A stretch of DNA of 64,000 nt from a virus (IMGVR_UViG_3300045988_140174:34574-98573), one strand, 5' to 3'; numbered from the stretch's first letter, positions 17,913 through 33,612 are shown. Numbers and translations are program-made. The notes: generated by a model from the sequence alone, not told the origin.

Positions 17913-18206
17913 TTCTTTTTACCGTTATCTGAATTGAAAAAAGTTTTGGTGAGAGTTTGTACCAGCCAAACAAAAAAATAAAAAGCAAAAAAAATTTTTT
18001 CCCGAAACCCACCCCCCGGTCGGTTTTTATCTGAGAAAAAATCTGAACACTATCGAGACCTTCTTGGGCTTGGCGCACGCGGAAAGGCTAGACCATCCCC
18101 AATACAGCCCCTCAACTCGCAGGACCGCGAATGGCTGTCGCGGTCCTCATTCGCAATAAATACAAACTCCACAAAAAATCTCTCGCAAATTTGTGTATTC
18201 TGCTAA

Positions 18207-18235
18207 TAGACACGCATCCTGAAACGTGGTATAAT
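18207..18235 (+). promoter_or_regulatory. promoter (TAGACA-17-TGGTATAAT)
   Basis: extended -10 and spacing; 26 nt upstream of RBS AAAGGAGG. Confidence 0.55.
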
Positions 18236-18260
18236 AGCACTATCAAAGGAGGAATAGTCT

Positions 18261-18356
18261 ATGTCTATCATCTACAAAGTCGTGCGCTTCATCACCGCGG
18301 TCGCTGTTGTCGCGGGCACTGGCATCTTGATGTGCCTCATCTGCCTCCCTCACTGA
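18261..18356 (+). CDS. 31-aa hydrophobic peptide (MSIIYKVVRFITAVAVVAGTGILMCLICLPH)
   Basis: own promoter, perfect RBS AAAGGAGG, own terminator overlapping the stop codon. Confidence 0.6.
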   Translation: MSIIYKVVRFITAVAVVAGTGILMCLICLPH

Positions 18357-18368
18357 GGGAGGTTTTTT
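18344..18368 (+). terminator. intrinsic terminator
   Basis: CCTCCCTCACTGAGGGAGG + TTTTTT. Confidence 0.75.
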
Positions 18369-18380
18369 GTTGCCCTAAGA

Positions 18381-19170
18381 TTGTTAAAAATTTAACGATG
18401 TAGCAAGATTGTTAAAAGATTAACAATGTAGTGAGATTGTTAAAAATTTAACAATCACTCAACCAAGAGAGGACAAGGACACGCACGGCACAGTGGACAA
18501 GGCAGAGCGAGCCAATGAGCGAGCGACCAACAGACAAAGAGAACAACACACAACACAACACAATGATAGATACATTGTTAATGTATTAACAATGTAGTAT
18601 AGTAGTATGGTATGGTAGTAGGTGGGGTAGGGGTGGGCTATGGGTAGTGGGTGGTGGAGGAGAGTAGACCAACAATAAGAGAATAGAACGCGCTTCCCAC
18701 CGGTCGGCTCACCAGGAACCGCGCACAACAAATCTAATGTAAGTATTCTATTTCTCTTTTGGGTTCATCATCGTTAACGGCCCTAATCGCCCAAGAATAA
18801 GCCCTCGCACAATTGCCAAACAACACAGCGGGGCAGGCGCTGAACCGCGCGCATCCCGCAACGCACAACTCTCACAGAGGAGCGAGCAAGATTGTTAAAA
18901 GTTTAACAATGTGAGAGCCAAGAGCAAGAGAGTAAAGAGTGCGCTTGCACAGGTAGCAAGGAGGATACACACGGCACAGTTGATACATTCGCTGACCGAG
19001 CAAGATTGTTAAAAAATTCACAATGTGTGGATGTGGTGAAGTCGCTGTTTAATTGTTAAAAATTTCACATTCGCTGTTGGATGCCGAACACGGTCGCAAC
19101 GCCCCAGACTTCACCACAGTAAAGTGGTAAAGAAAAAAAATTGCAAATGCGATTGTTAAAATAATCACAA
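18381..19170. repeat. array of 8 copies of the 18-bp palindrome TTGTTAAAA-N-TTTAACAA (ninth copy at 20313..20330)
   Basis: sites at about 18381, 18409, 18438, 18576, 18893, 19007, 19053 and 19154; dyad symmetry suggests binding sites for a dimeric protein. Confidence 0.7.
18459..18668. other. strand-asymmetric low-complexity region: T-depleted stretch, (CA)n-like run, C-free G-rich stretch with G-quadruplex potential
   Basis: 18459..18563 has only 2 T; 18594..18668 is composed of G/T/A; GGTGGGGTAGGGGTGGGCTATGGGTAGTGGGTGGTGG. Confidence 0.6.
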
Positions 19171-19212
19171 TCTCTGTCCCGAAAATAAATAGGTTATTTT
19201 TGAAAAAACCTC

Positions 19213-19241
19213 TTGACAAATTGCCCTATGTGTGCTACAAT
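19213..19241 (+). promoter_or_regulatory. promoter TTGACA-17-TGCTACAAT
   Basis: consensus -35, TG-extended -10. Confidence 0.6.
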
Positions 19242-19271
19242 GATTACAGTAAAACAAAGGAGGACGATACA

Positions 19272-19508
19272 ATGTCTAACATCTATGGAGTCTGCTACAC
19301 CACCAAAGAGCCTGTTGTCTACAACAGAGGGACACAGTGGGAGAAAACCTGTTCCGATTTCCTGTTCGTTCAGGCAAACAAGGACAATGGCACAGAGCTG
19401 GTGGACAAACTGAACGCTATGCTCGCCGAGGGTGTGGAAAAGTACGAACTGCTGGACATGACCAAGATTGACCATTTCTATCTTGACAAGTCCGAGGAAA
19501 TGTATTAA
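19272..19508 (+). CDS. hypothetical protein, 78 aa
   Basis: RBS AAGGAGGACGATACA-ATG; track ORF 19200 starts upstream of the promoter, so the internal Met is used. Confidence 0.6.
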   Translation: MSNIYGVCYTTKEPVVYNRGTQWEKTCSDFLFVQANKDNGTELVDKLNAMLAEGVEKYELLDMTKIDHFYLDKSEEMY

Positions 19509-19521
19509 GGAGGAACTGACA

Positions 19522-19710
19522 ATGACACGCACTATCGCTAATACCTACATCTGTATCAACAACGAGGGACAGACGCTCTCCATCATCGCCCGCACGGGCA
19601 ACGAAGCCCACAACATCGCAATAGGGTTTTTGCGGAAAGCCAACATCGTGAGCGTTCGTCGTGTATTCAAGTCCGGCAAGCTGGGCAAGGAAATTCTGAA
19701 AATTAAATAA
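19522..19710 (+). CDS. hypothetical protein, 62 aa
   Basis: RBS AAGGAGGAACTGACA-ATG. Confidence 0.6.
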   Translation: MTRTIANTYICINNEGQTLSIIARTGNEAHNIAIGFLRKANIVSVRRVFKSGKLGKEILKIK

Positions 19711-19716
19711 AATAAA

Positions 19717-19740
19717 CAGGGCGCAAGCCCTGTTTTTTTT
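19717..19740 (+). terminator. intrinsic terminator (GCAA tetraloop)
   Basis: CAGGGCGCAAGCCCTG + T8; identical hairpin repeated at 19992. Confidence 0.8.
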
Positions 19741-19750
19741 GAAAAAACTA

Positions 19751-19779
19751 TTGACAAATCCCGAAATAGGTGTTATACT
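19751..19779 (+). promoter_or_regulatory. promoter TTGACA-17-TATACT
   Basis: consensus spacing. Confidence 0.6.
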
Positions 19780-19811
19780 AAATACAGAAATTAAGAAATG
19801 AGGTAAACACC

Positions 19812-19991
19812 ATGAACACTAATTCTAATCTTTCCAACACCGCTTTCCAGTCCCTGCTCCGCACAATCCGCAACTATCGCGAAACATCTCGCCCGTTCTC
19901 CGCAATCACTACTTACAATGAGTTTTTTGACCGCATGAGCCAGGAACAGCGGGAAGAAGCGTATGAAGCACTCACCGGTAAATTGAATTAA
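19812..19991 (+). CDS. hypothetical protein, 59 aa
   Basis: RBS GAAATGAGGTAAACACC-ATG; below the ORF-track size cutoff. Confidence 0.5.
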   Translation: MNTNSNLSNTAFQSLLRTIRNYRETSRPFSAITTYNEFFDRMSQEQREEAYEALTGKLN

Positions 19992-20018
19992 CAGGGCGCA
20001 AGCCCTGTTATTTTTTTT
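19992..20018 (+). terminator. intrinsic terminator
   Basis: CAGGGCGCAAGCCCTG + T-run. Confidence 0.8.
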
Positions 20019-20038
20019 ATAAAATGCGAAAAAAACTA

Positions 20039-20067
20039 TTGACAAACACAAATAAGCGTGTTATAAT
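20039..20067 (+). promoter_or_regulatory. promoter TTGACA-17-TATAAT
   Basis: perfect consensus hexamers. Confidence 0.65.
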
Positions 20068-20099
20068 GAATACAGAAATTAAGAAATGAGGTACACAAA

Positions 20100-20288
20100 A
20101 TGAAGAACATCTATGAAATCGAGAACATCATCGACGAAATCCCCGCTGATGACTGGGCTGGCATTTGTAATTTGATGGACTACTACTATCAGTCGAATTT
20201 CTCCGCTGACGCTGAACAGAGACTGGCAAGGGCAATCGCTCCTTACGGCTTGACCGCAGAGGAAATCCTGACCTGGGACGCTGAATAA
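20100..20288 (+). CDS. hypothetical protein, 62 aa
   Basis: RBS GAAATGAGGT; same leader (AATACAGAAATTAAGAAATGAGGT) as gene 19812. Confidence 0.6.
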   Translation: MKNIYEIENIIDEIPADDWAGICNLMDYYYQSNFSADAEQRLARAIAPYGLTAEEILTWDAE

Positions 20289-20325
20289 GCGTCCTATTTT
20301 TTTGCTGTTGGATTGTTAAAATTTT

Positions 20326-20398
20326 AATGAGCATCGTCGCGCTCATCAGGCACGTGGCGCCCCGAAATATTATACCACAGCAGTCCACCAGTTGTCAA
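20326..20398 (-). promoter_or_regulatory. antisense-oriented promoter (TTGACA-18-TGGTATAAT on minus strand) firing toward a hairpin + T-run (20326..20345)
   Basis: rc of 20369..20398 gives a consensus promoter; ATGAGC-N8-GCTCAT + TAAAATTTT downstream on the minus strand. Confidence 0.5.
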
Positions 20399-20456
20399 GA
20401 GAAAAATGCGAAAATTTCGCACAAAATTTGCTATCCCGATTTGTATAGTTTGCCAA

Positions 20457-20485
20457 TAGACAAAATAAAATAAGCGTGTTATAAT
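20457..20485 (+). promoter_or_regulatory. promoter TAGACA-17-TGTTATAAT
   Basis: extended -10. Confidence 0.5.
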
Positions 20486-20518
20486 GAATACAACAAAACA
20501 ACAAAGGAGATACACAAC

Positions 20519-20827
20519 ATGATTAACATTCGTTCTATCCGCAAGCTGGGCAACAATGACGGGCTGACCCTCAAAATGGGCAAAAAGGTAAACTATAAAT
20601 CCGGCTGGCAGGTTGCCACAGAGGGCATCGAGTGCAAGACCGCACAGGAAGCCATTGACGCGGTGAGAGACTACGGCGGAAATTGTGGCGTGTGGTTCAG
20701 CGAGGGCATTTACTACATCGACAAGAGCAAGCGCGTGGCGACAAAGTGTGAAGCTATGGAAATCGGCAAAGCGTGCAATCAAATTTCCGTGCTGAAATGG
20801 GCGACTATGACGCTTGCCTACTGTTAA
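20519..20827 (+). CDS. hypothetical protein, 102 aa
   Basis: RBS AAAGGAGATACACAAC-ATG. Confidence 0.65.
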   Translation: MINIRSIRKLGNNDGLTLKMGKKVNYKSGWQVATEGIECKTAQEAIDAVRDYGGNCGVWFSEGIYYIDKSKRVATKCEAMEIGKACNQISVLKWATMTLAYC

Positions 20828-20832
20828 AATAA

Positions 20833-20858
20833 TAGGGCGAAAGCCCTATTTTTTTTTT
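20833..20858 (+). terminator. intrinsic terminator (GAAA tetraloop)
   Basis: TAGGGCGAAAGCCCTA + T10. Confidence 0.8.
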
Positions 20859-20879
20859 GAAAAAATTTTGAAAAAGGTA

Positions 20880-20908
20880 TTGACAAATCCCGAAATAGGT
20901 GCTATAAT
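20880..20908 (+). promoter_or_regulatory. promoter TTGACA-17-TATAAT
   Basis: consensus. Confidence 0.65.
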
Positions 20909-20939
20909 TAAACCATCAAATGAAGGAGGTCGCAAGACT

Positions 20940-21104
20940 ATGATGACTACTGTAAAGACTCCTGACGGCGTGCCCCCTGTTAAGCCTCTGTCCTATGTGC
21001 TGGGCGATGACTGGACGTACCTTTACAGCGATAGCTGGAAAGGCGTTGAATTCGACGTTCACGCGTGTATGAACGGCGAGGTTGTCGCAGTAGTCGAGGG
21101 TTAA
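20940..21104 (+). CDS. hypothetical protein, 54 aa
   Basis: RBS AAGGAGGTCGCAAGACT-ATG; the track ORF N-terminus would include the promoter. Confidence 0.55.
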   Translation: MMTTVKTPDGVPPVKPLSYVLGDDWTYLYSDSWKGVEFDVHACMNGEVVAVVEG

Positions 21105-21132
21105 TCCCTCGGTTATTTTTTTTATTTTTTTT
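21095..21132 (+). terminator. intrinsic terminator overlapping the stop codon
   Basis: CGAGGGTTAATCCCTCG + T-rich run. Confidence 0.6.
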
Positions 21133-21142
21133 GAAAAAACTA

Positions 21143-21171
21143 TTGACAAAATGCGCCTACGGTGCTATAAT
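21143..21171 (+). promoter_or_regulatory. promoter TTGACA-17-TATAAT
   Basis: consensus. Confidence 0.65.
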
Positions 21172-21201
21172 TAAACCATCAAAAGAGAGGAGCTAAACGC
21201 T

Positions 21202-21393
21202 ATGACAAATTTTGAACAGTATCTCGAAAACCTGATGGGTATGAAGAAAGCGGAAATCATCAACGAGGGCATCACCTGGGGCATCTGGGCGAACACCGAG
21301 GGCAACAAAGCCGAGCTGATGAAATGGAAAAAAGTGCTGCTGGCGCGTTCCCTTGCCGATAGGCTGGAAAGACTGGAAAGGCGGGGCTACTAA
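21202..21393 (+). CDS. hypothetical protein, 63 aa
   Basis: RBS AGAGAGGAGC. Confidence 0.6.
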   Translation: MTNFEQYLENLMGMKKAEIINEGITWGIWANTEGNKAELMKWKKVLLARSLADRLERLERRGY

Positions 21394-21395
21394 GA

Positions 21396-21420
21396 CAAGG
21401 GCGAAAGCCCTTGTTTTTTT
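21396..21420 (+). terminator. intrinsic terminator
   Basis: CAAGGGCGAAAGCCCTTG + T7. Confidence 0.8.
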
Positions 21421-21472
21421 ATATATGGCATTATGCCCATAATTCGGTTGAAAATTTTGGTGATTTTGCCTA

Positions 21473-21567
21473 TTGACATTCTGCCCCATTTGTGTTATAC
21501 TCGGTCGCGCGCCCACGGCCCTGATGCGCGGAAATTCCATTATACCACAGCCCAGCCAATTTGTCAA
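21473..21567. promoter_or_regulatory. composite element: plus promoter (TTGACA 21473-17-TATACT 21496), GC hairpin (21502..21531), face-to-face minus promoter (TTGACA-17-TGGTATAAT, 21539..21567 rc)
   Basis: both promoters have consensus hexamers and 17-bp spacers; they converge on a 30-nt GC stem-loop. Confidence 0.6.
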
Positions 21568-21626
21568 GCATTTTGTGTTCGGTATTTTCAACAATTTTTT
21601 GTCCCGAAATTTGTGCAATTTGACGG

Positions 21627-21655
21627 TTGACAACGCCCAGTAGGTATGCTATACT
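21627..21655 (+). promoter_or_regulatory. proximal promoter TTGACA-17-TGCTATACT
   Basis: extended -10. Confidence 0.6.
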
Positions 21656-21685
21656 TATACCATCAATTAAAGGAGGTCATTCACA

Positions 21686-21861
21686 ATGGCTACTATCGCA
21701 ATCCTCGCAATCCTCGCCCTCGCTGGCTTCGCTGGCGTTCAGTGTGTCGGCGGGGATATGGTTTATCGTCAGACGCACGACTGGCACTTCCTCGTTGGCT
21801 CTATCCTATATGGCGTTGCCTGTATCGGTCTGATGCGCTTCGTGTTCAATATGGGGTGGTA
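21686..21861 (+). CDS. small membrane protein, 58 aa, 2 transmembrane helices
   Basis: RBS AAAGGAGGTCATTCACA-ATG. Confidence 0.6.
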
Positions 21862-21863
21862 AT

Positions 21864-22187
21864 ATGGAAAACTACACTATGTCGAACCATCTGACAGAGG
21901 AGCGGGCTAACCGGCTCGCCCTCTTACAGGAATACCTCGGATATTCCGACCGCGTGATGATTGAGGTCATCGACCAACGCCAAACCGCCCGTCTGCGTTT
22001 GCTCTCGACTGGCATTATCTTGGTGCTGGACTTATATGAGAATTTCATCATCACCGCATACCCCGCAACCTTTGAACGGGCTGTCGCTATATACAAGAGT
22101 GCAGGCAAAAACCGCTTACCTCAACAGTTGGTCAAGCGCATCCGCAAGAATGAGGAACGCCACCCCGAATTTTATGTAGTAAAGTAG
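21864..22187 (+). CDS. hypothetical protein, 107 aa
   Basis: start overlaps the upstream stop (TAATATG). Confidence 0.6.
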   Translation: MENYTMSNHLTEERANRLALLQEYLGYSDRVMIEVIDQRQTARLRLLSTGIILVLDLYENFIITAYPATFERAVAIYKSAGKNRLPQQLVKRIRKNEERHPEFYVVK

Positions 22188-22193
22188 AAAATT

Positions 22194-22227
22194 GGGGCTT
22201 GACAACAAGCCCCATTTCTGCTATAAT
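22194..22227 (+). promoter_or_regulatory. promoter whose -35 (TTGACA 22199) sits in the loop of hairpin GGGGCTTG-ACAA-CAAGCCCC; -10 TATAAT 22222
   Basis: hairpin immediately 3' of the upstream gene; -10 follows after an 18-nt spacer. Confidence 0.55.
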
Positions 22228-22258
22228 GAGTATAACAAAACAAGGGAGGACGAAAAAA

Positions 22259-22588
22259 ATGTCTGATGTAATTATCGCTGGTTTGCTTATGGCTGGTCTG
22301 GTGGGTCTGCCTATTGGCTTGCTTTTTGCCATAGGGAGTGATACATGGTGGGGCAAGGTGCTGTCGTTCGTTATCTTTTGTTCCATCTTCTTCGGCTTCG
22401 GTGCTATGATAGGACAAGACCACGTCAACGATTGCAACACTTTCAACAATGGCGTGTGCGTTCAGTGTGGCGGTGAATACCGCATGAGTGGCGCAACTCG
22501 CACCCGTATGGGAAGCGAAACATTTTACTACACCTGTGAAAACTGCGGTTGGACTATTGAGACTAACGGTCTGATGAACAAACACTAA
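22259..22588 (+). CDS. membrane protein with C-terminal zinc ribbon, 109 aa
   Basis: RBS AAGGGAGGACG; two transmembrane helices, then CVQCGG...CENCG. Confidence 0.6.
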   Translation: MSDVIIAGLLMAGLVGLPIGLLFAIGSDTWWGKVLSFVIFCSIFFGFGAMIGQDHVNDCNTFNNGVCVQCGGEYRMSGATRTRMGSETFYYTCENCGWTIETNGLMNKH

Positions 22589-22601
22589 GGAGGGAAACAA
22601 A

Positions 22602-22829
22602 ATGGAAATTATTAAAGCCCCTATCTATGTCAAAATGACAGAGGAGGAACGGAAAACCCTGCGTGACGCCTATGACATTCTGAATGAATTGTATGACATT
22701 ATCCACGATAATGACTGCGAGTATGTGAGCGATACTTGCGGAAATGGCTATGACAGAGTGGACGTCGCGCTTACGGCTAATGTGCTTCAAATGCTTGCCC
22801 CCACTGAAAAAGTGGAAATCGGCAAATGA
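22602..22829 (+). CDS. hypothetical protein, 75 aa (paralog of 22845..23075)
   Basis: RBS AAGGAGGGAAACAAA-ATG. Confidence 0.6.
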   Translation: MEIIKAPIYVKMTEEERKTLRDAYDILNELYDIIHDNDCEYVSDTCGNGYDRVDVALTANVLQMLAPTEKVEIGK

Positions 22830-22844
22830 AAGGAGGTAAAACAA

Positions 22845-23075
22845 ATGAACATCATTACCTCAAATGTTCAGGTTCAACTCACCCAAGAGGAAAAGGACAA
22901 ACTTCAAGACGCCCGCGAGGTCATTTCTCACCTGTTTGATTTGATGTATGACTACGAACAAGAATACGCTATTTCCAACATCGGCGAAGAGTATTCTATG
23001 AGCCAAGTCCGTGATACCTCAAACCTGCTGGCCGCGCTTATCGGGTCTGATAAAATGCGGTTAGAAAATAAATAA
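22845..23075 (+). CDS. hypothetical protein, 76 aa (paralog of 22602..22829)
   Basis: RBS AAAGGAGGTAAAACAA-ATG; shared pattern ..T.EE...L.DA.....L..L.D.D.EY. Confidence 0.6.
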   Translation: MNIITSNVQVQLTQEEKDKLQDAREVISHLFDLMYDYEQEYAISNIGEEYSMSQVRDTSNLLAALIGSDKMRLENK

Positions 23076-23080
23076 AAAAA

Positions 23081-23105
23081 TGTGGGAGAAATCCCACATT
23101 TTTTA
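23081..23105 (+). terminator. intrinsic terminator
   Basis: TGTGGGAGAAATCCCACA + T6, abutting the next -35. Confidence 0.75.
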
Positions 23106-23134
23106 TTGACAACAACCAAGAGGTGTGGTATAAT
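23106..23134 (+). promoter_or_regulatory. promoter TTGACA-17-TGGTATAAT
   Basis: consensus. Confidence 0.65.
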
Positions 23135-23164
23135 AAATACATCAAATAAAGGAGGATACCCCGA

Positions 23165-23371
23165 ATGACTATTTTTGAAATCAGAACTGAACTGGCCGAC
23201 CGTTATTGCGTAAAGCCTGACAAGGTAAGATGTTCCAACTGTGAATATTGGGGTTATAACCGCGGTAAGGTAATGAACAGTATGGGCGAGAGTAAATGTA
23301 TGAAGCGAAAGAACGAGCGCACCTGGTGTCGTCAATTCTGCCGGGGTTTCGTTCCAAAATCGGGAAAGTAA
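23165..23371 (+). CDS. Cys-rich small protein, 68 aa
   Basis: RBS AAAGGAGGATACCCCGA-ATG; CSNCEYW...CMKRK..WCRQFC. Confidence 0.6.
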   Translation: MTIFEIRTELADRYCVKPDKVRCSNCEYWGYNRGKVMNSMGESKCMKRKNERTWCRQFCRGFVPKSGK

Positions 23372-23376
23372 ATCAT

Positions 23377-23412
23377 TTGGGCTGGATGAACAAAAATCCA
23401 GCCCAATTTTTG
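23377..23412 (+). terminator. intrinsic terminator
   Basis: TTGGGCTGGATGAACAAAAATCCAGCCCAA + T-run. Confidence 0.75.
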
Positions 23413-23425
23413 TATAATTTTCCAC

Positions 23426-23479
23426 TTGACATTTTCGGCCGCGCGCTCACGATTGTGGCGCCCGGCATTTTTGTCAATA
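23426..23479. promoter_or_regulatory. degenerate copy of the promoter/hairpin/antisense-promoter element (TTGACA 23426; hairpin about 23436..23466; inverted TTGACA 23471..23479 without a good -10)
   Basis: hairpin loop TCACGATTGTG is shared with the copy at 31537..31561. Confidence 0.45.
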
Positions 23480-23525
23480 GGCATACTTCACAAATTTTTC
23501 GCCGCAATTTTGTGCATTTTGACGA

Positions 23526-23554
23526 TTGACTTCTATCCCGTAATACGGTATAAT
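23526..23554 (+). promoter_or_regulatory. proximal promoter TTGACT-17-TATAAT
   Basis: leader GGTATAATGGCTATACTGAAACAAGGAGGTAAG is shared with the 27195 gene. Confidence 0.6.
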
Positions 23555-23583
23555 GGCTATACTGAAACAAGGAGGTAAGAACA

Positions 23584-23802
23584 ATGGAGTTGAAGAAAGC
23601 GTATCAGATGGTGTTCAGCGACCTGCGCGAATGCCCTATGTTCCAAGGGCGTTATGATGCCATCAACGGCAATCCCTATTATATGTCCGGCATTGAGACG
23701 GTTATGGAAGTCATCGCCAATCGCGCCTATAATGATGATTTCGCCGAGCGGTTCTCCAATGAATTTACCGACAATATGTTAAGGAGTAGAAAAAATGTCT
23801 GA
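23584..23802 (+). CDS. hypothetical protein, 72 aa
   Basis: RBS AAGGAGGTAAGAACA-ATG. Confidence 0.65.
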   Translation: MELKKAYQMVFSDLRECPMFQGRYDAINGNPYYMSGIETVMEVIANRAYNDDFAERFSNEFTDNMLRSRKNV

Positions 23803-24166
23803 TTTTCAGAAGCAAACCCTCAAAAGGTATGGGCACAATTTCCTCATTGTGTGCGGTTTCGGTTTGCTGGTGTATGGTATGATAAAGTCCACACTGGTGC
23901 TATACGCAACAGTTGCGATTATGGTACTAACTATCGTAGGCGCGTGTATATGGTCTATGGTAGACTCTGTTCGCTGGGACTGGCGGTTGCGCGGTAAGCT
24001 AACAGAGAGCGAGTATAAGGCATACCAGTCCTGTGAAAGAGTTTTCGGCTGGCGTGATGATAAATACCTGCCGACTGAGGAACAAATTTACGCTATGGCG
24101 ATGGAAACATCTATTGACAAAGATGTGCTATGGAGTATGTATAACAAACTGACGGAGGGGCATTAA
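23795..24166 (+). CDS. membrane protein, 123 aa
   Basis: overlaps the upstream gene by 8 nt; two transmembrane helices. Confidence 0.6.
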   Translation: MSDFQKQTLKRYGHNFLIVCGFGLLVYGMIKSTLVLYATVAIMVLTIVGACIWSMVDSVRWDWRLRGKLTESEYKAYQSCERVFGWRDDKYLPTEEQIYAMAMETSIDKDVLWSMYNKLTEGH

Positions 24167-24281: not shown

Positions 24282-24312
24282 TATAATAGAAATTAAGAAA
24301 GGAATTGATACT

Positions 24313-27126: not shown

Positions 27127-27130
27127 GAAT

Positions 27131-27407: not shown

Positions 27408-27416
27408 AAAAAGTTT

Positions 27417-27455: not shown

Positions 27456-27469
27456 AACATTACAAATTC

Positions 27470-27520
27470 AAGGTAGGGGAAACGATGGTAAGCCCCACCA
27501 ATAGAAAAGGAGAAAAAAAA
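27470..27520 (+). promoter_or_regulatory. conserved 5' leader motif (copy 2)
   Basis: AAGGTAGGGGAAACGATGGTAAGCCCCACCAATAGAAAAGGAGAAAAAAAA. Confidence 0.5.
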
Positions 27521-27522
27521 CT

Positions 27523-28053
27523 ATGAAAGCTCGCTATGCTAACCTGACTAACTTCAATCGCACTGTCAAGACCTACAAGTGGCTGGTAGACCTGTTCGGA
27601 AGTAAGGAGTTCTCCTCTGAGGACTTCAAACAGGCAAAGCGCAAGTATCGGTGGTACACCTACAATTCCCTTGCGTTTCTGCGGGACGAGGGTATCATCA
27701 AGGTAGTTCGCACCGAACAGACCACCAAGGAAATTAATCTGCGTCCGTGGGAAGCGGACATTTGGATGATTGACAAGGATGGCAACGCCCTGATGACCGA
27801 GTATGACTGGGTGCGTTTGCCGGACGTGGCGCAGAACGCTCTGCGGACTATAAATGGACAGAATTTCCGCACGGAGCGCAAGGACACCAAGACCGTGGAA
27901 GTGGAAAAGTCCATTTACACAGTCAATCCTGATGGTATGCTGGCATGGCGCAAGAGGTATGGGCGTCTGTTGGCTGAAAGGGCTGACGCGCTGGCGGGCG
28001 AAATCGCAAACCTGAACGAAAAGCGGGACGCATTTCTCGCTTGTCAGCTCTAA
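27523..28053 (+). CDS. hypothetical protein, 176 aa
   Basis: ORF with RBS in the conserved leader. Confidence 0.65.
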   Translation: MKARYANLTNFNRTVKTYKWLVDLFGSKEFSSEDFKQAKRKYRWYTYNSLAFLRDEGIIKVVRTEQTTKEINLRPWEADIWMIDKDGNALMTEYDWVRLPDVAQNALRTINGQNFRTERKDTKTVEVEKSIYTVNPDGMLAWRKRYGRLLAERADALAGEIANLNEKRDAFLACQL

Positions 28054-28058
28054 CAAAA

Positions 28059-28086
28059 ATGAGGGGAAAATTCCCCTCATTTTTTG
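28059..28086 (+). terminator. intrinsic terminator
   Basis: ATGAGGGGAAAATTCCCCTCAT + T6. Confidence 0.8.
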
Positions 28087-28100
28087 TATAATTTTCCCTA

Positions 28101-28195
28101 TTGACAAACGCGCCTGGGCATGGTATAATGGCCGGCCGATTTCGCGCGTCTCGGCCGGAATTCACCATTATACACCCTGCCAGCAATTTTGTCAA
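28101..28195. promoter_or_regulatory. composite element: plus promoter (TTGACA 28101-17-TATAAT 28124), hairpin GGCCGGCCGA-N11-TCGGCCGG (28130..28158), face-to-face minus promoter (28167..28195 rc)
   Basis: consensus hexamers with 17-bp spacers on both strands. Confidence 0.6.
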
Positions 28196-28253
28196 GAGTT
28201 TTTTTGCACAAATTTTTTTATTTATTTTTCCCGAAACTTGTATAGTTTGCCTA

Positions 28254-28960
28254 TTGTAATCTATACTTACCTATGCTATACTACATAATGTCAAGAGGGA
28301 GTGAGACCCCGTGGGCTGGGCTAATGGTAGGTAATGTCCCAAGTGTAAGTGAGAGCGCGCCGTACTGAAAAAAAAGACCAAAATTCCCTCTTGACAAACT
28401 CCATCAAAGGTGCTATAATGGGTGTGTCAGGAGGCGGCTCAATGATGGGTCGCTCCCATCAGGATTAAACCGAAAAAAATTTCAAAGAAATTTGAAATTC
28501 CCTCTTGACAAACCCAAGCCCCTGTGCTATAATGGATAATGTCAAGAGGGGAACGGCACGGCAGATGCGTCTAATGTGTCGCTTGTGTAGACAGGTTTCA
28601 GAAATTTGGAAAAATTTCAAAAAACCTCTTGACAATCCCCAGCACCTGTGCTATAATTGATAATGTCAAGAGGGGAACAGCCCCACCCAAGAAATCCGCG
28701 GGTCGCGAACCGTGCGAGAGTAAAGGAAGTAAGCCCTATACCAGCGCAGTAAACCCAAACGATGAACGAAAAGTGAGTGGATTGGTCAGTTCGTCCATGC
28801 GCATGGAAACGTTGAACCAACAGCAACACCTTATTCGTCAGGCGAGGTTGTAAGTCGGCTGTGAATACTTGTGGAGCGTTCCCCTGTTGACACTATCAAA
28901 AAAAATCAAGAATTTTGGAAAAAACTCTTGACAATCCCAGCGCAAGCTGTTATAATAGAT
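28254..28960 (+). other. tandem array of 5 promoter-leader modules (TTGACA-17-TATAAT then transcript starting (G/A)ATAATGTCAAGAGGG...) with tiny ORFs
   Basis: promoters at about 28254, 28391, 28505, 28629 and 28928; tiny ORFs 28288..28368 (26 aa), 28442..28468 (8 aa, with AGGAGG RBS), 28539..28574 (11 aa), 28663..28752 (29 aa); a 175-nt spacer of unknown function at 28753..28927. Confidence 0.5.
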
Positions 28961-29012
28961 AATGTCAGGAGGGCAAAGCCCTCAAAACCAAATGGAGAAA
29001 GGAATTGATACT

Positions 29013-29393
29013 ATGGCTAACACTAACACCACCACCCGCAAGCCCACCAAGCGCGATAATTTCACCGCCCTGCTGAAACTGTCCGAGGTCAAGGCTGACC
29101 CCAAGCTGGTGGAGTTCATCACCCACGAAATCGACCTGCTCGACCGCAAGAACACCGTGGACAAGAAGCCCACCAAGACCCAGCAGGAGAATGAGGTCAT
29201 CAAGACCACTGTCCTGTCCGCTATGGAGAGCAACCGGCTGTATTCTATCAGCGAGATGCTCAAAGAGTTCCCCGTCTGCAAGGACATGAGCAATCAGAAG
29301 CTGTCCTCCCTCGTCCGGCAGATGGTGCTGGATAAGCAGGTGGAGCGCGTGGAGGACAAGCGCAAGGCGTTCTTCCGCAAGGTGAGCGCGTAA
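29013..29393 (+). CDS. family-A protein, 126 aa (paralogs at 30202..30621 and 55655..56062)
   Basis: RBS GGAGAAAGGAATTGATACT-ATG; shared TKRDnFTAlL and LDRKNTVDKKPT motifs. Confidence 0.7.
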   Translation: MANTNTTTRKPTKRDNFTALLKLSEVKADPKLVEFITHEIDLLDRKNTVDKKPTKTQQENEVIKTTVLSAMESNRLYSISEMLKEFPVCKDMSNQKLSSLVRQMVLDKQVERVEDKRKAFFRKVSA

Positions 29394-29444
29394 ACCTCAA
29401 AGGGTGGGGAGCAATCCCCACCCTAACCCTGAAAGGAGTATCGC

Positions 29445-29801
29445 ATGACTGACCGAGTTGCCGACCTCATGCGAAAGCTGGATTGCACCGAAGCCGAAGC
29501 CAAGGACATTATCGTTCAAGATGCTATCATCGACAAAGGCGGCAATCCGTTTCCGCTGACCGAGGAGCAGGAAAAGGCAAGCAAGAAAGCGCGGGGAGTA
29601 GGACGCCAGCCGACCGCATACAAGTTCGCGCCAAGAGAAAAAAAGGCTAATCCCACAAAGCAGACTATCATCACTCTGCTGACCGAGACACTGACCACAT
29701 ACGGCGCGACTGACCTGAACGTGAGCAACGCGGAGCGCGAATTTTTATTCACGCTTGATGGAACAAAATACAAGGTTGTGCTGTCGTGCCCGCGCAAGTG
29801 A
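29445..29801 (+). CDS. family-B protein, 118 aa (paralog at 30683..31081)
   Basis: RBS TGAAAGGAGTATCGC-ATG; shared PTAYKF..RE.KANPTK motif. Confidence 0.7.
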   Translation: MTDRVADLMRKLDCTEAEAKDIIVQDAIIDKGGNPFPLTEEQEKASKKARGVGRQPTAYKFAPREKKANPTKQTIITLLTETLTTYGATDLNVSNAEREFLFTLDGTKYKVVLSCPRK

Positions 29802-29827
29802 GGGAGAGAAATCTCCCTCATTTTTTT
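29799..29827 (+). terminator. intrinsic terminator overlapping the stop
   Basis: TGAGGGAGAGAAATCTCCCTCA + T7. Confidence 0.8.
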
Positions 29828-29841
29828 GTGCATTTTGACTA

Positions 29842-29936
29842 TTGACAAACGCGCTCAAATGTGTTAAAATGGGTCGGGCGCTCACGGCTGTGGCGCCCGA
29901 AATTTCCATTATACCACGTGGCACAAATTTTGTCAA
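29842..29936. promoter_or_regulatory. composite element: plus promoter (TTGACA 29842-17-TAAAAT 29865), hairpin CGGGCGC-TCACGGCTGTG-GCGCCCG (29875..29899), face-to-face minus promoter (29908..29936 rc, TTGACA-17-TGGTATAAT)
   Basis: same architecture as 21473, 25674 and 28101. Confidence 0.6.
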
Positions 29937-30104
29937 GTGTTTTTTTGCACAAATTTTGGATGTTGAAAATCCCATTTTTTGTGAGTATTGACTATTGCAA
30001 TCTGCCCAAGGGTGTGGTAATATATAATTGTTCCAAGGGAGAGGGTAAGACCTCCCGGCGGGGCGTGTACCTCGAAAAAAATTCCACAAATCCGAAAAAA
30101 AGTC

Positions 30105-30133
30105 TTGACAAGGCTTCGGGTGTGTGTTATAAT
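30105..30133 (+). promoter_or_regulatory. promoter TTGACA-17-TATAAT
   Basis: consensus; leader ATAGATGTTCCAAGAGG has a 13-codon upstream ORF. Confidence 0.6.
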
Positions 30134-30201
30134 ATAGATGTTCCAAGAGGAAAACAACAATATGGTGGGCGACACCTAAAAACGCAGAAAGGGTTGATAC
30201 T

Positions 30202-30621
30202 ATGACTAACACTACTTCCACTGTGCGCCTGACCAAGCGCGACTACTTCACCGCCATTCTGTCCAAGGTGGATATGGACGCTACCTATGACATCCCCAAG
30301 GGTGATGCCATTGTCAAGGTTTCCGGTGCTGATGTGGCGGGCTTCCTGAACCACGAGCTGGACCTGCTCGACCGCAAGAACACCGTGGACAAGAAGCCGA
30401 CCGCCACGCAGGTGGCAAACGAGGGTATCAAGGCTGACATCAAGGCGTTCCTGGACGCCCACAAGGGCGAGAAGTACACCGTGTCCGCTCTGATGAAGTC
30501 TGTCCCCGCTATCGCCGATGCGTCCAATCAGAAGGTTTCTTCTCTGGTGCGTCAGATGGTGCTGGACGGTCAGGCAGACCGTATCGAGGATAAGCGCAAG
30601 GCGTATTTCACCGCCAAGTAA
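30202..30621 (+). CDS. family-A protein, 139 aa
   Basis: RBS GAAAGGGTTGATACT-ATG. Confidence 0.7.
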   Translation: MTNTTSTVRLTKRDYFTAILSKVDMDATYDIPKGDAIVKVSGADVAGFLNHELDLLDRKNTVDKKPTATQVANEGIKADIKAFLDAHKGEKYTVSALMKSVPAIADASNQKVSSLVRQMVLDGQADRIEDKRKAYFTAK

Positions 30622-30682
30622 GACATGAGGGGGGGAGACATTCTCCCCCCCTATCCTCTAAAATCTGAAAAGGCGGTGTTTT

Positions 30683-31081
30683 ATGGCTGAAATCTCCAAA
30701 ACTGAATGGCTGAAAAACGCTATGGCGAAAATGGGCTGGACGGCTGATGAAGCGGAAGCCGTGTGGAACTCTGACCGAGAAATCGACAAGGGCAAGAAGC
30801 AGGATTTTGACCTGTCGAAAGAACAGCTCAAAATCGCCCAAAAATTCGCCAAGACTGGCACACGCAAGACCCCCACCGCATACAAATTCACCACAAGGGA
30901 ACGCAAGGCAAATCCCACAAAAGCATCCATTATCGCTGAACTCGCAACATTTTTGACCGAAAACAGCGAAAATGCCTGCGAAAATGTGGAAATAACTAAC
31001 AAAGAGAGACAGATTGCATTTTCGGTTGGTGAAAATTCCTATGAACTGACCCTTGTGCAGAAGCGCAAGCCGAAAAGTTGA
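30683..31081 (+). CDS. family-B protein, 132 aa
   Basis: ORF; paralog of 29445..29801. Confidence 0.7.
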   Translation: MAEISKTEWLKNAMAKMGWTADEAEAVWNSDREIDKGKKQDFDLSKEQLKIAQKFAKTGTRKTPTAYKFTTRERKANPTKASIIAELATFLTENSENACENVEITNKERQIAFSVGENSYELTLVQKRKPKS

Positions 31082-31131
31082 GAAAATGGGGGAGAAATCC
31101 CCCATTTTCCCCGAAAAATGAGGAAAAAAGT

Positions 31132-31476
31132 GTGAAAAACAAGGAATTTTTGTATGTAGGGCACTATTATGATGAAAATGGCGTATACATTCTGAAAATA
31201 GGCACTACTAACAATTTAAAGCGCAGACAGCGGGAACATACCCACAACTACAAAGAGTCTCCGGTTTACCGTTTACCGAAAAATGGTAAGTTTATTTACG
31301 ATTTTTCGATACCGCTCTCTAAATACAACACTTTGCGATACGAGGACAAAAATCGTGAGCATTGGCAGAAAATGGGATACGGCGTGTTTGTGAGAAATGA
31401 CAGATTTGCCTGTCCTGTGAAGCCGAAGTCTGTTGAAATTACCATTCGTCGAACTTACCAAATCGCTCTCGATTGA
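31132..31476 (+). CDS. GIY-YIG nuclease-domain protein, about 114 aa (start codon uncertain: GTG 31132 or TTG 31078)
   Basis: motif GVYILKIGTTNNLKRRQREH; no dedicated promoter; follows hairpin 31086..31105. Confidence 0.55.
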   Translation: MKNKEFLYVGHYYDENGVYILKIGTTNNLKRRQREHTHNYKESPVYRLPKNGKFIYDFSIPLSKYNTLRYEDKNREHWQKMGYGVFVRNDRFACPVKPKSVEITIRRTYQIALD

Positions 31477-31503
31477 GGGCGATTTTTTTATTCAATTTGA
31501 CTA

Positions 31504-31561
31504 TTGACAACGCCCTCTGACTGTGGTATAATGGGTCGGGCGCTCACGATTGTGGCGCCCG
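31504..31561. promoter_or_regulatory. promoter (TTGACA 31504-17-TATAAT 31527) + hairpin CGGGCGC-TCACGATTGTG-GCGCCCG (31537..31561) + inverted TTGACA remnant
   Basis: degenerate copy of the composite element. Confidence 0.5.
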
Positions 31562-31622
31562 GCATTTTTGTCAATACACATTTTCAACAATTTTTCCGGC
31601 GAAAGTTTGTATAAATTGACTA

Positions 31623-31651
31623 TTGCATTTTGTCCCGAAATGCGCTATACT
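31623..31651 (+). promoter_or_regulatory. proximal promoter TTGCAT-17-TATACT
   Basis: spacing and hexamers. Confidence 0.5.
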
Positions 31652-31699
31652 ATAAACAATCTGAGGGAACTGGAACCCACCAACAGCAAGGAGGCATCT

Positions 31700-32311
31700 A
31701 TGAATAAGAGCCAGTTTTTTGACCACGAAATCGAGTTCATTCAGTCCGAGGATTTGCGCTCATTCGTGCGCTATTACTTCGACTGTATCGTTCCCGATTA
31801 TTTCTGGACTATCGGCGCGAGTTCTTCCGGCAAGTTCCATCCGGCTATGAGCCAAGGCGAGGGCGGTTTGGTGCGCCACACTAAGGCGGTGGCGTGGTTT
31901 TGTGAGGAATTGCTCCGCATGAGCCAGTGGGCGTATCTCACTGACGAGCGCAAGGACTATGCACGAGTTGCCTGTCTGCTCCACGATACAGCCAAGTATG
32001 GCTTACACGAGTTCGACAAGGAACAGTATGCCCAGCACGGCGCGATTGCCGCTGACCAAGTTTGCCGGACGTGGATGGTGTTTTTCAATGAGGACTGCCC
32101 CTACGAGCTGACGCAAGCCATCAAGTCCCACATGGGTCAGTGGACTACCAACAAGGCGGATAGACCTTTCACTCCTATCGACAGACTGGTACACATGGCT
32201 GACTATGTGGCAAGCCGTCCGTTTATCGACATTCCGGCAATCAACGCTGACTATAACGACAAGGCGGAACTGGACGAAATCTCGCCTGGACTGCCGTGGG
32301 AGGAGGAATAA
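31700..32311 (+). CDS. HD-domain phosphohydrolase (5'-deoxynucleotidase-like candidate), 203 aa
   Basis: H..(GKFHP), HD (LLHDTAKY), D (HMADYVAS) motif set; RBS CAAGGAGGCATCT-ATG. Confidence 0.65.
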   Translation: MNKSQFFDHEIEFIQSEDLRSFVRYYFDCIVPDYFWTIGASSSGKFHPAMSQGEGGLVRHTKAVAWFCEELLRMSQWAYLTDERKDYARVACLLHDTAKYGLHEFDKEQYAQHGAIAADQVCRTWMVFFNEDCPYELTQAIKSHMGQWTTNKADRPFTPIDRLVHMADYVASRPFIDIPAINADYNDKAELDEISPGLPWEEE

Positions 32312-32313
32312 TC

Positions 32314-32505
32314 GTGACCCTTAAATTTTACTTCAACGCTGACGAGAATATGTGTGCGAGCGAGCACTGGGTCATCCAGTATCTCCACATACAAAATCCC
32401 GACATAGACGAGGATGAAATCGAGGACGAACTCCGCTCCCGCCGGGAATATTTTGGCTGGTATGAGTGCCAAGTGTCCGATGACATTGAAGAAAAATTCT
32501 TTTGA
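32314..32505 (+). CDS. acidic small protein, 63 aa (GTG start)
   Basis: RBS GGAGGAGGAATAATC-GTG overlapping the upstream stop. Confidence 0.5.
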   Translation: MTLKFYFNADENMCASEHWVIQYLHIQNPDIDEDEIEDELRSRREYFGWYECQVSDDIEEKFF

Positions 32506-32507
32506 GA

Positions 32508-32538
32508 TTAAGGGTGGAGAAATCCACCCTTAATTTTT
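32508..32538 (+). terminator. intrinsic terminator
   Basis: TTAAGGGTGGAGAAATCCACCCTTAA + T6. Confidence 0.8.
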
Positions 32539-32552
32539 GTTTATTTTGCCTA

Positions 32553-32640
32553 TTGACAACGTGGGCCCGGTGTGGTATAATAAAAGGGGAGGGTACAACG
32601 GGCCGAGCGCGGGCGCTGCGGTCCGAAATTCCGATCTGTA
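32553..32640. promoter_or_regulatory. promoter (TTGACA 32553-17-TATAAT 32576) + GC-rich hairpin region; the antisense promoter is absent in this copy
   Basis: GGGCCGAGCGCGGGCGCTGCGGTCCGAAATTCC resembles the hairpin + GAAATTYC of the other copies. Confidence 0.45.
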
Positions 32641-32730
32641 CCCCCATATGGAAAATTTTTCGTGATTCTAGCGACCCTCATATGCGCGCCAAAAATCCCA
32701 AAAAGCCGAGCCCCGCTCGGTACCCATATG
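32638..32730. repeat. three CATATG motifs in about 90 bp, two embedded in GTACCC(CC)ATATG direct repeats
   Basis: CATATG at 32645, 32679 and 32725; GTACCC at 32638 and 32720. Confidence 0.5.
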
Positions 32731-32739
32731 CCGCCCGGT

Positions 32740-32825
32740 TTGACATAAAAAAAAATTTATGTTATAATGATAAAAAAAACCATTTTTTTTCTCACTTGAC
32801 TTTTAAAAAAATTTTTTGTATAATA
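32740..32825 (+). promoter_or_regulatory. two tandem promoters (TTGACA 32740-17-TATAAT 32763; TTGACT 32797-17-TGTATAAT 32820)
   Basis: consensus hexamers and spacing. Confidence 0.55.
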
Positions 32826-32856
32826 TATGTATACAAAATGAAAAGAGGTTATTTAT

Positions 32857-33231
32857 ATGAATAAGAACGATATTCTGACGCGCTTAATGAATGGCGAGAG
32901 CGCTGAGGATATTGCTAAGGAAATGACTGCGATGCTGAATGACGCCACCAAGGCATATGCTGACCAGAAGAAGGACAAGGAAAAGATGGCCCGAGCGGAA
33001 GCGGTTGCCGATGCTATCAACGACTATGCGGCCTACGTCGGCTATAAGGGCGCAGAGTTGAAGGGCGAGGACGTCATTAAGGTTATGGACAGTTTCCTTA
33101 AATTCTACAAGGACCCAGGTAATTTCAAGATTGAACTCCCCGGATTCCGTTTTGAAACAAACTCTAAGGGTGCGATTAAGAAGGGCAAAACCGTTGATGA
33201 AATTCTCAACGACTGGATTTCTCGCATTTAA
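32857..33231 (+). CDS. hypothetical protein, 124 aa
   Basis: RBS AAAAGAGGTTATTTAT-ATG. Confidence 0.65.
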   Translation: MNKNDILTRLMNGESAEDIAKEMTAMLNDATKAYADQKKDKEKMARAEAVADAINDYAAYVGYKGAELKGEDVIKVMDSFLKFYKDPGNFKIELPGFRFETNSKGAIKKGKTVDEILNDWISRI

Positions 33232-33244
33232 TTTCGATTAACGT

Positions 33245-33307
33245 GTCGGCCCAGGTATTTTTCATTTGGGAAATTGGCGATTAGAATACCTGGGCTCGAC
33301 GTTTTTT
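33245..33307 (+). terminator. strong intrinsic terminator closing the GC-rich block
   Basis: about 15-bp stem GTCGGCCCAGGTATT...AATACCTGGGCTCGAC + TTTTTT. Confidence 0.8.
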
Positions 33308-33612
33308 GGAAAGGGTATCTTGAAAAATTCAGAGGATGACGATAACGATGAAATTGAGTGATGAGTTGGTACCGAGCGGGGGCACCAAACTTCCATCATT
33401 TTTCAATTTTTCTATTATTATCATCATTCTACCATAATCATTTTGTTATTAAGAGAAAACATTATAAGTTCCATTATTCGTTGTTTACAATTATATTCAT
33501 CAACCCCGCTAATAGGTTTATTTAATTATGATTTAGTTTTTGTGGAGGTAAAACAATTAATCAAACCTCAGACTCAAAAAAACGTCATAAGTCAAAAAAA
33601 ACATCATTGGTT

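Follow-up and report, generated by a model that had tools for sequence, protein, structure and literature searches.

Base composition changes together with promoter type and TAG recoding along a phage genome

Segments of distinct composition and genetic code

We analyzed a 64,000-nucleotide (nt) stretch of viral DNA (IMGVR_UViG_3300045988_140174, 34574-98573; hereafter the window, with positions counted from its first letter) that belongs to a large phage (roughly 130-200 kb) from the gut or rumen. A first-pass annotation made from the sequence alone had described a sharp-edged mosaic of G+C content (GC), and the mosaic is real: GC profiles in 1-kb windows (200-nt windows at the edges) and maximum-likelihood change points both give the steps, the latter at 18001, 33387, 36560, 40609 and 60033. 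The edges of the most GC-rich block had been placed at 17940 and 33320, about 60 nt from the computed positions. From left to right, the GC content is 0.323 (1-16050), 0.291 (16051-17995), 0.464 (17996-33395), 0.286 (33396-36555), 0.398 (36556-60090) and 0.231 (60091-64000). The two GC-richer segments, here called the early block and the middle or 40% block, are as distinct as first described, although the original estimates of about 50% and 42% GC were too high (46% and 40% measured). Along these segments composition changes together with the type of promoter and with the use of TAG as a sense codon. On balance we favor the view that the genome is organized in temporally ordered expression classes, which differ from one another in promoter type, in codon style and in how they treat TAG.

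Third codon positions carry most of the contrast. The GC content of third positions (GC3) is 0.61 in early genes, 0.42 in middle genes and 0.11-0.26 in the AT-rich segments. Given by codon position (GC1/GC2/GC3), the values are 0.49/0.36/0.61 for the early block, 0.49/0.34/0.42 for the 40% block and 0.44/0.32/0.21 for the late module at 1-16 kb, and GC3 is as low as 0.11 for genes at 60-64 kb. For instance, CTG makes up 50% of the leucine codons in early genes and TTA 65% in late genes, while the glutamine codons of late genes are 31% TAG and only 13% CAG. The codon tables of the window show the strongest enrichment in late relative to early genes for TTA, TAG and CCA. The G/C-ending codons of early genes are also used unevenly, with GGC (0.50) above GGG (0.11), ACC (0.39) above ACG (0.13), TCC (0.34) above TCG (0.09) and CTG (0.50) above CTC (0.16). 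Within the early block, GC is 48% inside open reading frames (ORFs) and 43% outside them, and ORFs of at least 60 amino acids leave about 39% of the block uncovered.

The AT-rich parts contain short ORFs under the standard code and long, abutting ORFs once TAG is read as sense. TAG-as-sense alone gave a clean gene map; reading TGA or TAA as sense yields merely extra overlapping ORFs in several frames and was rejected. In alignments with standard-code relatives, TAG stands opposite glutamine in 343 of 570 comparisons (the runner-up, glutamate, has 40), and the code is therefore TAG = Gln. About 30% of the genes are recoded. In-frame TAG occurs at 6-24 per 1000 codons in the AT-rich parts (58 in 5107 codons for the late module at 1-16 kb; 0-9 per late-type gene) and is essentially absent from the two GC-richer blocks, so that the block edges match the switch between TAG-as-sense and TAG-free coding, as had been claimed. 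The late-type genes lie on the minus strand at 1-16 kb and 33.4-36.4 kb and on the plus strand at 16.2-17.9 kb, 40.6-41.7 kb and 60.1-64 kb, and the TAG-free genes on the plus strand at 18-33.4 kb and 36.6-60 kb. Mean GC3 is 0.25 in TAG-bearing genes versus 0.46 in TAG-less genes (Mann-Whitney p = 3e-8).

TAG is also rare as a stop codon in the GC-richer blocks. All 66 clear cases end in TAA or TGA (17 TAA and 9 TGA in the early block, 29 TAA and 11 TGA in the middle block), with at most 1-2 candidate TAG terminators in each block. Both blocks thus fit the "dual-coded" condition known from other phages, in which there is no sense TAG and either code can be read. Gene 25220-25417 had been thought to carry one read-through TAG. 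An in-frame TAG does exist there (25298-25300, plus strand), but reading it through as glutamine is not borne out: all five close relatives that have the gene carry TGG (Trp) at this position, and the TAG is therefore a lineage-specific Trp-to-amber change rather than a glutamine sense codon. Such a recent amber would truncate the protein or, after the code switch, be read as glutamine.

Apparent TAG codons in six ORFs of the early and middle blocks were resolved individually. The apparent sense TAG of ORF 27415 and the first TAG of ORF 25079 lie upstream of the true start. Those of ORFs 21864 and 58165 are likely terminators or short read-throughs, as probably is the TAG of ORF 51995, 8 codons before the ORF end. 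ORF 50294, a lower-GC gene, has one probable sense TAG, supported by alignment to a neighboring paralogue.

Promoter classes

The early block (18001-33387, plus strand; 46% GC, TAG-free) contains some 26 credible small genes, grouped in short units that each begin with a promoter and in many cases end with a terminator. Repeat finding followed by a direct consensus scan identified an array of 30 plus-strand copies of TTGACA-N17-TATAAT (N18 in one) with at most one mismatch (18207-32824, with starts from 18207 to 32796), where about 4.0 are expected across the whole window on both strands; a separate promoter/terminator scan agrees. In most of these promoters the -10 element is of the TG extended type and the spacer is rich in G+C. 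Downstream of each is a Shine-Dalgarno sequence and then a small gene, and intrinsic terminators follow many of the genes. Based on these 30 host sigma-A-type promoters, small genes and terminators, the block has the architecture of an early region, predicted to be read by host RNA polymerase. At its right edge, the hairpin and T-run at 33245-33307 (plus strand) that the first-pass annotation had called a terminator are present on reading the sequence; the terminator scanner made no call at 33245-33307 because the hairpin loop is long.

Five promoters inside the early block face the opposite way, four of them within repeated non-coding units of about 240 nt. Such units occur at 21420-21660, 25620-25860, 28050-28290 and 29790-30030, with partial copies at 23370 and 32500, and contain a terminator hairpin, a plus-strand consensus promoter, a conserved GC-rich hairpin (CGGGCGC...GCGCCCG) and a facing minus-strand consensus promoter. 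This layout suggests convergent transcription or small antisense RNAs.

The middle block (36560-60033, plus strand; 40% GC, GC3 0.42, TAG-free), which encodes many small acidic proteins, has a second promoter class: about 11 plus-strand copies, at 36459-57103, of TTGATTTTT-(AT-only spacer)-TATAAT-ATATATATAAG(A/G)T. Starts lie at 36479, ~39330, ~43800, 44841, 47721, 49989, 51229, 53761, 55584 and 57084. Only 0.03 copies are expected, and within the window the class is found only at 36.4-57.1 kb; the motif is found in relatives too. A third variant, with a sigma-A-like core and an A/T-tract spacer, stands at the edges of TAG-bearing units. It comprises a divergent pair at 16019-16131 with starts at 16047 (minus strand) and 16103 (plus strand), a promoter at 60065 (plus strand), and further copies at 32740, 32796 and 56202. 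In the few intergenic gaps of the late module we found no late-specific promoter motif, just terminator hairpins and the 16047 promoter.

The late virion and packaging module (1-16008, minus strand; about 32% GC, GC3 0.21, TAG = Gln) begins behind promoter 16047 with a sigma-factor-like gene (14929-15993, minus strand) that matches phrog_5767 "sigma factor" (E = 1.6e-53), has no Pfam match and contains 4 in-frame TAG codons. Since these codons follow a promoter that is itself sigma-A-like, synthesis of the protein may be gated by suppression rather than by transcription. Also on the minus strand are PHROG-matched genes for the large terminase (11955-13688), portal (9914-11575) and a virion protein (1050-2126), and a capsid-region gene (6235-7341).

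The window contains no tRNA and no Rfam family. In a search of related phages with a CTA-anticodon tRNA pattern, we identified a match in L182 (contig 3300021254_000022), a recoded member of the family with 76% terminase identity, whose tRNAs are Leu(TAG), Pro(TGG), Gln(TTG), Sup(CTA) and Leu(TAA). Second-class promoters precede both the Leu(TAG)-Pro-Gln cluster and Sup(CTA) by about 100 nt, and Leu(TAA) lies about 800 nt past the suppressor tRNA. This suppressor tRNA(CTA) (7777-7866), with its long variable arm, is conserved between L182 and phages similar to Phass-1 (GenBank OQ749652), a distant relative. In Phass-1, two suppressor tRNAs adjoin a tRNA-Leu(TAA), a linkage that recurs in six Phass-1-like contigs. 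Altogether, a suppressor tRNA, an adjoining tRNA-Leu(TAA) or both were located in L182 (7777-7866), L128 (12442-12703), L154, L273, L275, L276, L278 and L279. Around the terminase in more than 70 relatives there is no tRNA except one tRNA-Arg in L047.

Conservation in related phages

To place the mosaic among related genomes we used the terminase family, which comprises 78 loci in IMG/VR and 11 contigs in metagenome-assembled genomes (MAGs). Megablast against GenBank phages gave no useful relatives, and tblastn gave distant cultured relatives only. The junction at 17.95 kb is crossed unbroken in 8 different contigs (87-96% identity), that at 33.35 kb in 5 contigs (81-88% identity) and that at 60.09 kb in 1 contig. 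Consensus promoters upstream of the terminase, on the divergent strand, are present in all 51 relatives with full 10-kb flanks, with 6-18 in each. Furthermore, orthologues of at least nine early-block genes adjoin the packaging module in relatives whose terminases are 60-80% identical; those beside the packaging module (for example, of 24510, 25850, 26470, 28962 and 29445) have 35-67% protein identity. The gene content of the early block varies among close relatives.

The GC3 of an orthologue follows the genome and not the gene. For instance, that of 26470 is 0.22 in L012, 0.32 in L015, 0.57 in the L042 group and 0.68 in L013. Per genome, early GC3 ranges from 0.17 to 0.68 and late GC3 just from 0.15 to 0.37, and high early GC3 (0.44-0.68) recurs in nine terminase clusters at saturating divergence. 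Compared by terminase cluster, without phylogenetic correction, the median early-minus-late difference in GC3 is 0.30 in nine recoded clusters versus 0.15 in seven unrecoded ones (p = 0.011), while late GC3 is 0.22 in recoded and unrecoded clusters alike.

Paralogues link the two GC-richer blocks. Family-A genes 28962-29393 and 30202-30621 (plus strand; GC3 ~0.75-0.83) encode proteins that are 49% identical (E = 4e-39), and a third copy in the 40% block (55655-56062, plus strand; GC 0.53, with second-class promoter 55584 upstream) is 29% identical to the first (E = 2e-7). Protein comparison thus confirms the earlier observation that the family occurs in both blocks.

The host is probably a member of the Bacillota. 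Nine of the 11 MAGs that hold contigs of the family are labelled as Bacillota lineages, and the distant cultured relatives all infect Bacillota. Strong Shine-Dalgarno sites and TG-extended -10 promoters also fit this phylum.

Maintenance of the compositional contrast

We counted third-position changes on the terminal branches of seven close genomes, with contig 134374 as the outgroup; polarization by outgroup was used because majority-rule parsimony is biased under skewed base composition. The early block has 143 changes from G/C to A/T and 47 from A/T to G/C, which implies an equilibrium GC3 of 0.37 against a standing value of 0.64. For the late block the counts are 71 and 110, the implied equilibrium 0.31 and the standing value 0.23. 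The counts differ between blocks (Fisher's exact test, p = 2e-12), and the similar implied equilibria indicate that the input of changes is AT-biased in both. The late genes are near mutational equilibrium and the early block is held far above it. Given that high early GC3 recurs across saturating divergence, a directional force must maintain the excess, which is therefore not a decaying relic. The force could be selection or biased gene conversion. Third-position identities in the early and late blocks group the genomes differently, and the early block diverges about twice as fast.

Other features of the window

Early-block proteins are mostly orphans, with almost no matches in Pfam and PHROGs; only an NT5C-like 5'-nucleotidase, an HD-domain protein and a T5orf172-domain protein are recognized. 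A by-eye reading of 26470-27126 as an exonuclease was confirmed by no library, and we do not use the name. Between the two early family-A genes lies one member of a second paralogue pair (29445-29801), the other being 30683-31081 (both plus strand). The first early transcription unit (promoter 18207, terminator 18343-18363, plus strand) encodes just one hydrophobic peptide of 31 residues (18262-18357; MSIIYKVVRFITAVAVVAGTGILMCLICLPH). It is followed by an ORF-free stretch (18370-19180) in which the palindrome GATTGTTAAAAATTTAACAATG occurs 8 times, together with a G-rich tract (~18600-18660). This stretch of 0.8 kb, shortly downstream of a gene for an AbrB/MazE-fold DNA-binding protein (17370-17687, plus strand; PF04014, E = 2.7e-6), is a candidate operator array, partition site or packaging site. 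The AbrB/MazE-fold gene belongs to a set of small AT-rich TAG-bearing genes at 16162-17912 (plus strand).

Among the genes of the 40% block, all on the plus strand, are those for a metallophosphatase (39864-40616), an HNH protein (43838-44527) and an M28-like peptidase (57125-58165). Genes 53804-55543 and 58165-59727 encode two large paralogues that share 29% identity over 211 residues; the C-terminal parts of both are cysteine-rich, and one weakly matches Prok-RING_4. Two AT-rich islands interrupt the block. The first (40609-41750, plus strand; GC3 0.18), noted at 40.6-41.75 kb by the first-pass annotation, is real and is a TAG-bearing, homing-endonuclease-like insertion with ORFs 40631-40822 (1 TAG) and 40812-41741 (6 TAG). 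It is absent from the two closest relatives, L253 and L254, where both flanking genes occur. The larger ORF has zinc-ribbon repeats and a C-terminal domain paralogous to the small late-module gene 11588-11944; this mobile gene is written in the late codon style. The second island (56164-57067, plus strand) consists of one TAG-free gene (56255-57067; GC 0.35) behind promoter 56202, which is sigma-A-like with an AT-rich spacer.

The AT-rich segment 33396-36555 carries TAG-bearing genes on the minus strand, among them a helix-turn-helix/sigma-region-4-like gene (35407-35970, 7 TAG). Dense TACAACC/GGTTGTA iterons, including three 80-bp tandem units, abut this gene (34927-35542), and the related IMG/VR contigs L002 and L003 (147738 and 120995) end there. 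The iteron region may be a replication origin, or merely a repeat that breaks assemblies. At the right, the very AT-rich TAG-bearing segment 60091-64000 (plus strand; 23% GC), with genes for a FkbM-type methyltransferase (60831-62018) and a radical-SAM protein (62021-62974), runs past the end of the window; in relative L106 (8000-20435) it continues for at least 10 kb further at 19-31% GC. The closest IMG/VR contig, L254 (3300045988_160359, 197.5 kb; region 186299-197570), ends at about 39.3-40.1 kb of the window. The window runs across the ends of L254, which is consistent with a circularly permuted or complete assembly.

Discussion

An assembly chimera or contamination joining different organisms has the compositional steps in its favor and nothing else. 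Its probability is negligible given that the junctions are spanned in 8, 5 and 1 contigs, that this step recurs upstream of the terminase in relatives that are more distant and come from other samples, and that paralogues and shared promoter types occur on both sides of the boundaries; the argument against chimerism made in the first-pass annotation was right, both as to the paralogues that cross blocks and because several diverged contigs span the junctions. That annotation left two explanations, one of which was the capture of a large foreign module. The early block would then derive from a GC-richer phage or host and would now be ameliorating towards the AT-rich composition of the phage. 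Sharp boundaries, the 3:1 excess of G/C-to-A/T over the reverse among recent third-position changes, and the missing family matches of most block proteins all agree with a capture. However, orthologues of at least nine block genes sit beside the packaging module in diverged relatives, their GC3 is specific to the genome and not to the gene, high early GC3 persists in nine terminase clusters across saturating divergence, paralogues of block genes lie in the 40% block, and the whole family has the early promoter array. We therefore consider capture largely refuted and very improbable, and conclude that the GC steps are a conserved genome organization and not assembly error or captured DNA. The other explanation, an early or host-takeover module kept TAG-free, has stood up better: the block has early-type promoters, avoids TAG and is native to the phage family. 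No homologues of known takeover genes are among the family matches of its proteins.

What holds the early block above its equilibrium need not be selection on codons. Because the early and late blocks give incongruent groupings of the genomes, GC-biased gene conversion is a live alternative, though in our estimate an unlikely one. In this scenario a repeat-rich early block recombines often, G+C is raised at weakly constrained sites, and TAG avoidance is a separate consequence of early expression. The G+C-rich non-coding DNA of the block (0.43), its dense repeats (promoters, terminators and the 240-nt units), its twofold faster divergence and its variable gene content are all in line with frequent recombination, and recent changes that are mostly G/C to A/T despite a high standing GC3 are what a fixation bias would give. 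On the other hand, GC3 (0.61) is far above the non-coding value, the uneven G/C-ending codons look like codon preference and not like a uniform bias, and relatives with equally dense promoter arrays reach an early GC3 of just 0.23-0.38; moreover, we know of no demonstration of GC-biased conversion in phages. Selection could also act on the DNA itself, if a G+C-rich early block, read by unmodified host RNA polymerase, made its strong promoters stand out against a background cleared of spurious AT-rich promoter-like sites, or evaded AT-binding or silencing host proteins, with the late regions, read by a redirected polymerase, free of such a constraint. Promoter spacers and other non-coding DNA of the block are indeed G+C-rich, A/T-tract spacers occur instead in the promoters that border TAG-bearing units, and a phage sigma-factor-like gene is present. 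We think this less probable still, since the effect is strongest at third codon positions and is codon-specific, the same promoter arrays are kept at 31-35% GC in relatives, the 40% block is intermediate in composition yet has AT-only promoters, and no silencing protein or host is identified for the system.

We return to the reading of temporally ordered expression classes, which would work as follows. Early genes must be translated at once by an unmodified host and would for this reason be selected for a GC-ending style that suits the host tRNA pool. Late genes would sit near an AT-biased mutational equilibrium and depend on phage tRNAs, namely the suppressor CTA, Leu-UAA, Gln-UUG and Pro-UGG. 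Early promoters would act first, second-class promoters and the tRNAs next, and TAG- and TTA-rich genes, including that for the sigma-factor-like protein, last. The GC steps would then be the visible trace of this order of expression. The best-supported view of TAG recoding in this setting is that it is the extreme case of a split in codon style between early and late genes.

Several observations weigh against this reading. The non-coding GC of the early block is 0.43 versus 0.14-0.29 elsewhere, an enrichment that pure codon selection would not lead one to expect, and the incongruence of the early block described above keeps conversion in play. All three promoter classes retain the TATAAT -10 element, the late operon itself is headed by the sigma-A-like promoter 16047, and the temporal order suggested here is taken from promoter sequence only. 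The 10-kb extensions on either side of the window in close relatives contain no tRNA, and a stricter suppressor-tRNA pattern had no match in the window's own clade. That the early style is host-like is itself a supposition. The difference between recoded and unrecoded clusters is uncorrected for phylogeny, and unrecoded relatives show an early-late contrast too (GC3 0.55 versus 0.22 in L047, 0.52 versus 0.34 in the L042 group). Lastly, Alicyclobacillus phage KKP_3916, a cultured distant relative with the standard code, has a uniform GC content of 40% (GC3 0.34-0.42), which shows that the mosaic is not shared throughout the wider group. Given that the host of KKP_3916 is GC-richer, early genes do not track host GC as a general rule.

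A bolder extension, which we offer tentatively and as clearly less probable than the expression classes themselves, is that the whole program is timed by codon "dialects" and not by TAG alone, with a late dialect, private to the phage, that is rich in TTA, TAG, CCA and further A/T-ending codons, and with the early genes held by selection in the dialect of the host. The late dialect would be legible only after phage tRNAs have been made from second-class promoters. Stop recoding would arise where hosts use GC-ending codons, since phages there would already need tRNAs of their own. This would explain both why early genes are GC-rich in recoded lineages and why late composition is equal in all.

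If these ideas are true, stop recoding is one visible part of a wider division of the genome into compartments of translation, the temporal gene classes of uncultured phages can be told from third-position composition alone, and the route to recoding leads from host codon mismatch to phage tRNAs and on to a suppressor tRNA. In practice, software for gene calling or host prediction that expects a single composition throughout a phage genome will mis-handle such genomes, and binning or chimera filters may wrongly split them.

Comparison with known systems

Code blocks in phages are already known; their coupling to composition and promoter class appears to be undescribed. In the text of these reports available to us, code-block phages (crAss-like, Lak, Jade, Sapphire and Agate) have late genes recoded at TAG or TGA and early genes that are standard or "dual-coded" (10.1101/2021.08.26.457843; 10.1101/2022.06.29.495998), and low GC across the genome is proposed as a precursor of recoding (10.1101/2021.08.26.457843). 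The phage described here resembles them in that in-frame TAG is confined to structural and late modules scattered over a genome of about 200 kb, early genes avoid TAG both as sense and as stop, a relative carries a suppressor tRNA, and the host phylum is probably Firmicutes/Bacillota. The likeness to Sapphire is limited to the share of recoded genes (26% according to Borges et al., about 30% here) and the size of the genome (about 130-200 kb). By contrast, the available portions of the code-block papers tie recoding to whole-genome GC and do not describe a GC3 split of 0.6, 0.4 and 0.1-0.2 within one genome. The same portions of the code-block literature that we searched contain no within-genome GC3 split of such size, no match of it to promoter class, and no drift of early-gene composition against a fixed late composition.

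Phass-1, assigned to a "Caudoviricetes code 15 clade" (PMC10607447), has a terminase that is distantly related to that of the window (44% identity). The paper on Phass-1 gives overall GC alone, 44.5% (PMC10607447). In Phass-1, too, TAG is sense in late genes, and its TAG-rich giant ORFs have a GC3 of 0.20-0.26 and its TAG-free parts 0.43-0.70. Unlike the phage studied here, Phass-1 is 136 kb long, has a near-complete set of 36 tRNAs, and its GC-richer part makes up most of the genome.

The layout of the early block recalls the host-takeover module of Bacillus phage SPO1 and the pre-early regions of T5-like phages, in which small genes of unknown function stand behind strong host-type early promoters. 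They are alike in having a block of about 13-15 kb with many small genes and a promoter for each gene or short group. We found no sequence homology between early-block proteins and these takeover modules, and to our knowledge SPO1 has no comparable GC step or code change.

In T4, and likewise in Shigella phage Sf14 (PMC12482277), early and late genes differ in codon usage in a way connected with phage tRNAs. As in these phages, late genes of the window would favor codons of phage tRNAs, with early genes probably nearer to host usage. The effects reported in T4 and Sf14 are modest, whereas here GC3 differs by 0.4-0.5 across sharp edges and a stop codon is reassigned as well. In a more remote parallel, expression in Streptomyces is gated by the TTA codon and the bldA tRNA. 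The late genes of papillomaviruses use codons that the host disfavors (PMC4558848). Both cases are analogies only, in that late-acting genes are rich in a codon whose tRNA is limiting up to a given stage. In the window TTA and TAG are more late-specific than any other codons, and related phages have the tRNAs for the two in physical linkage.

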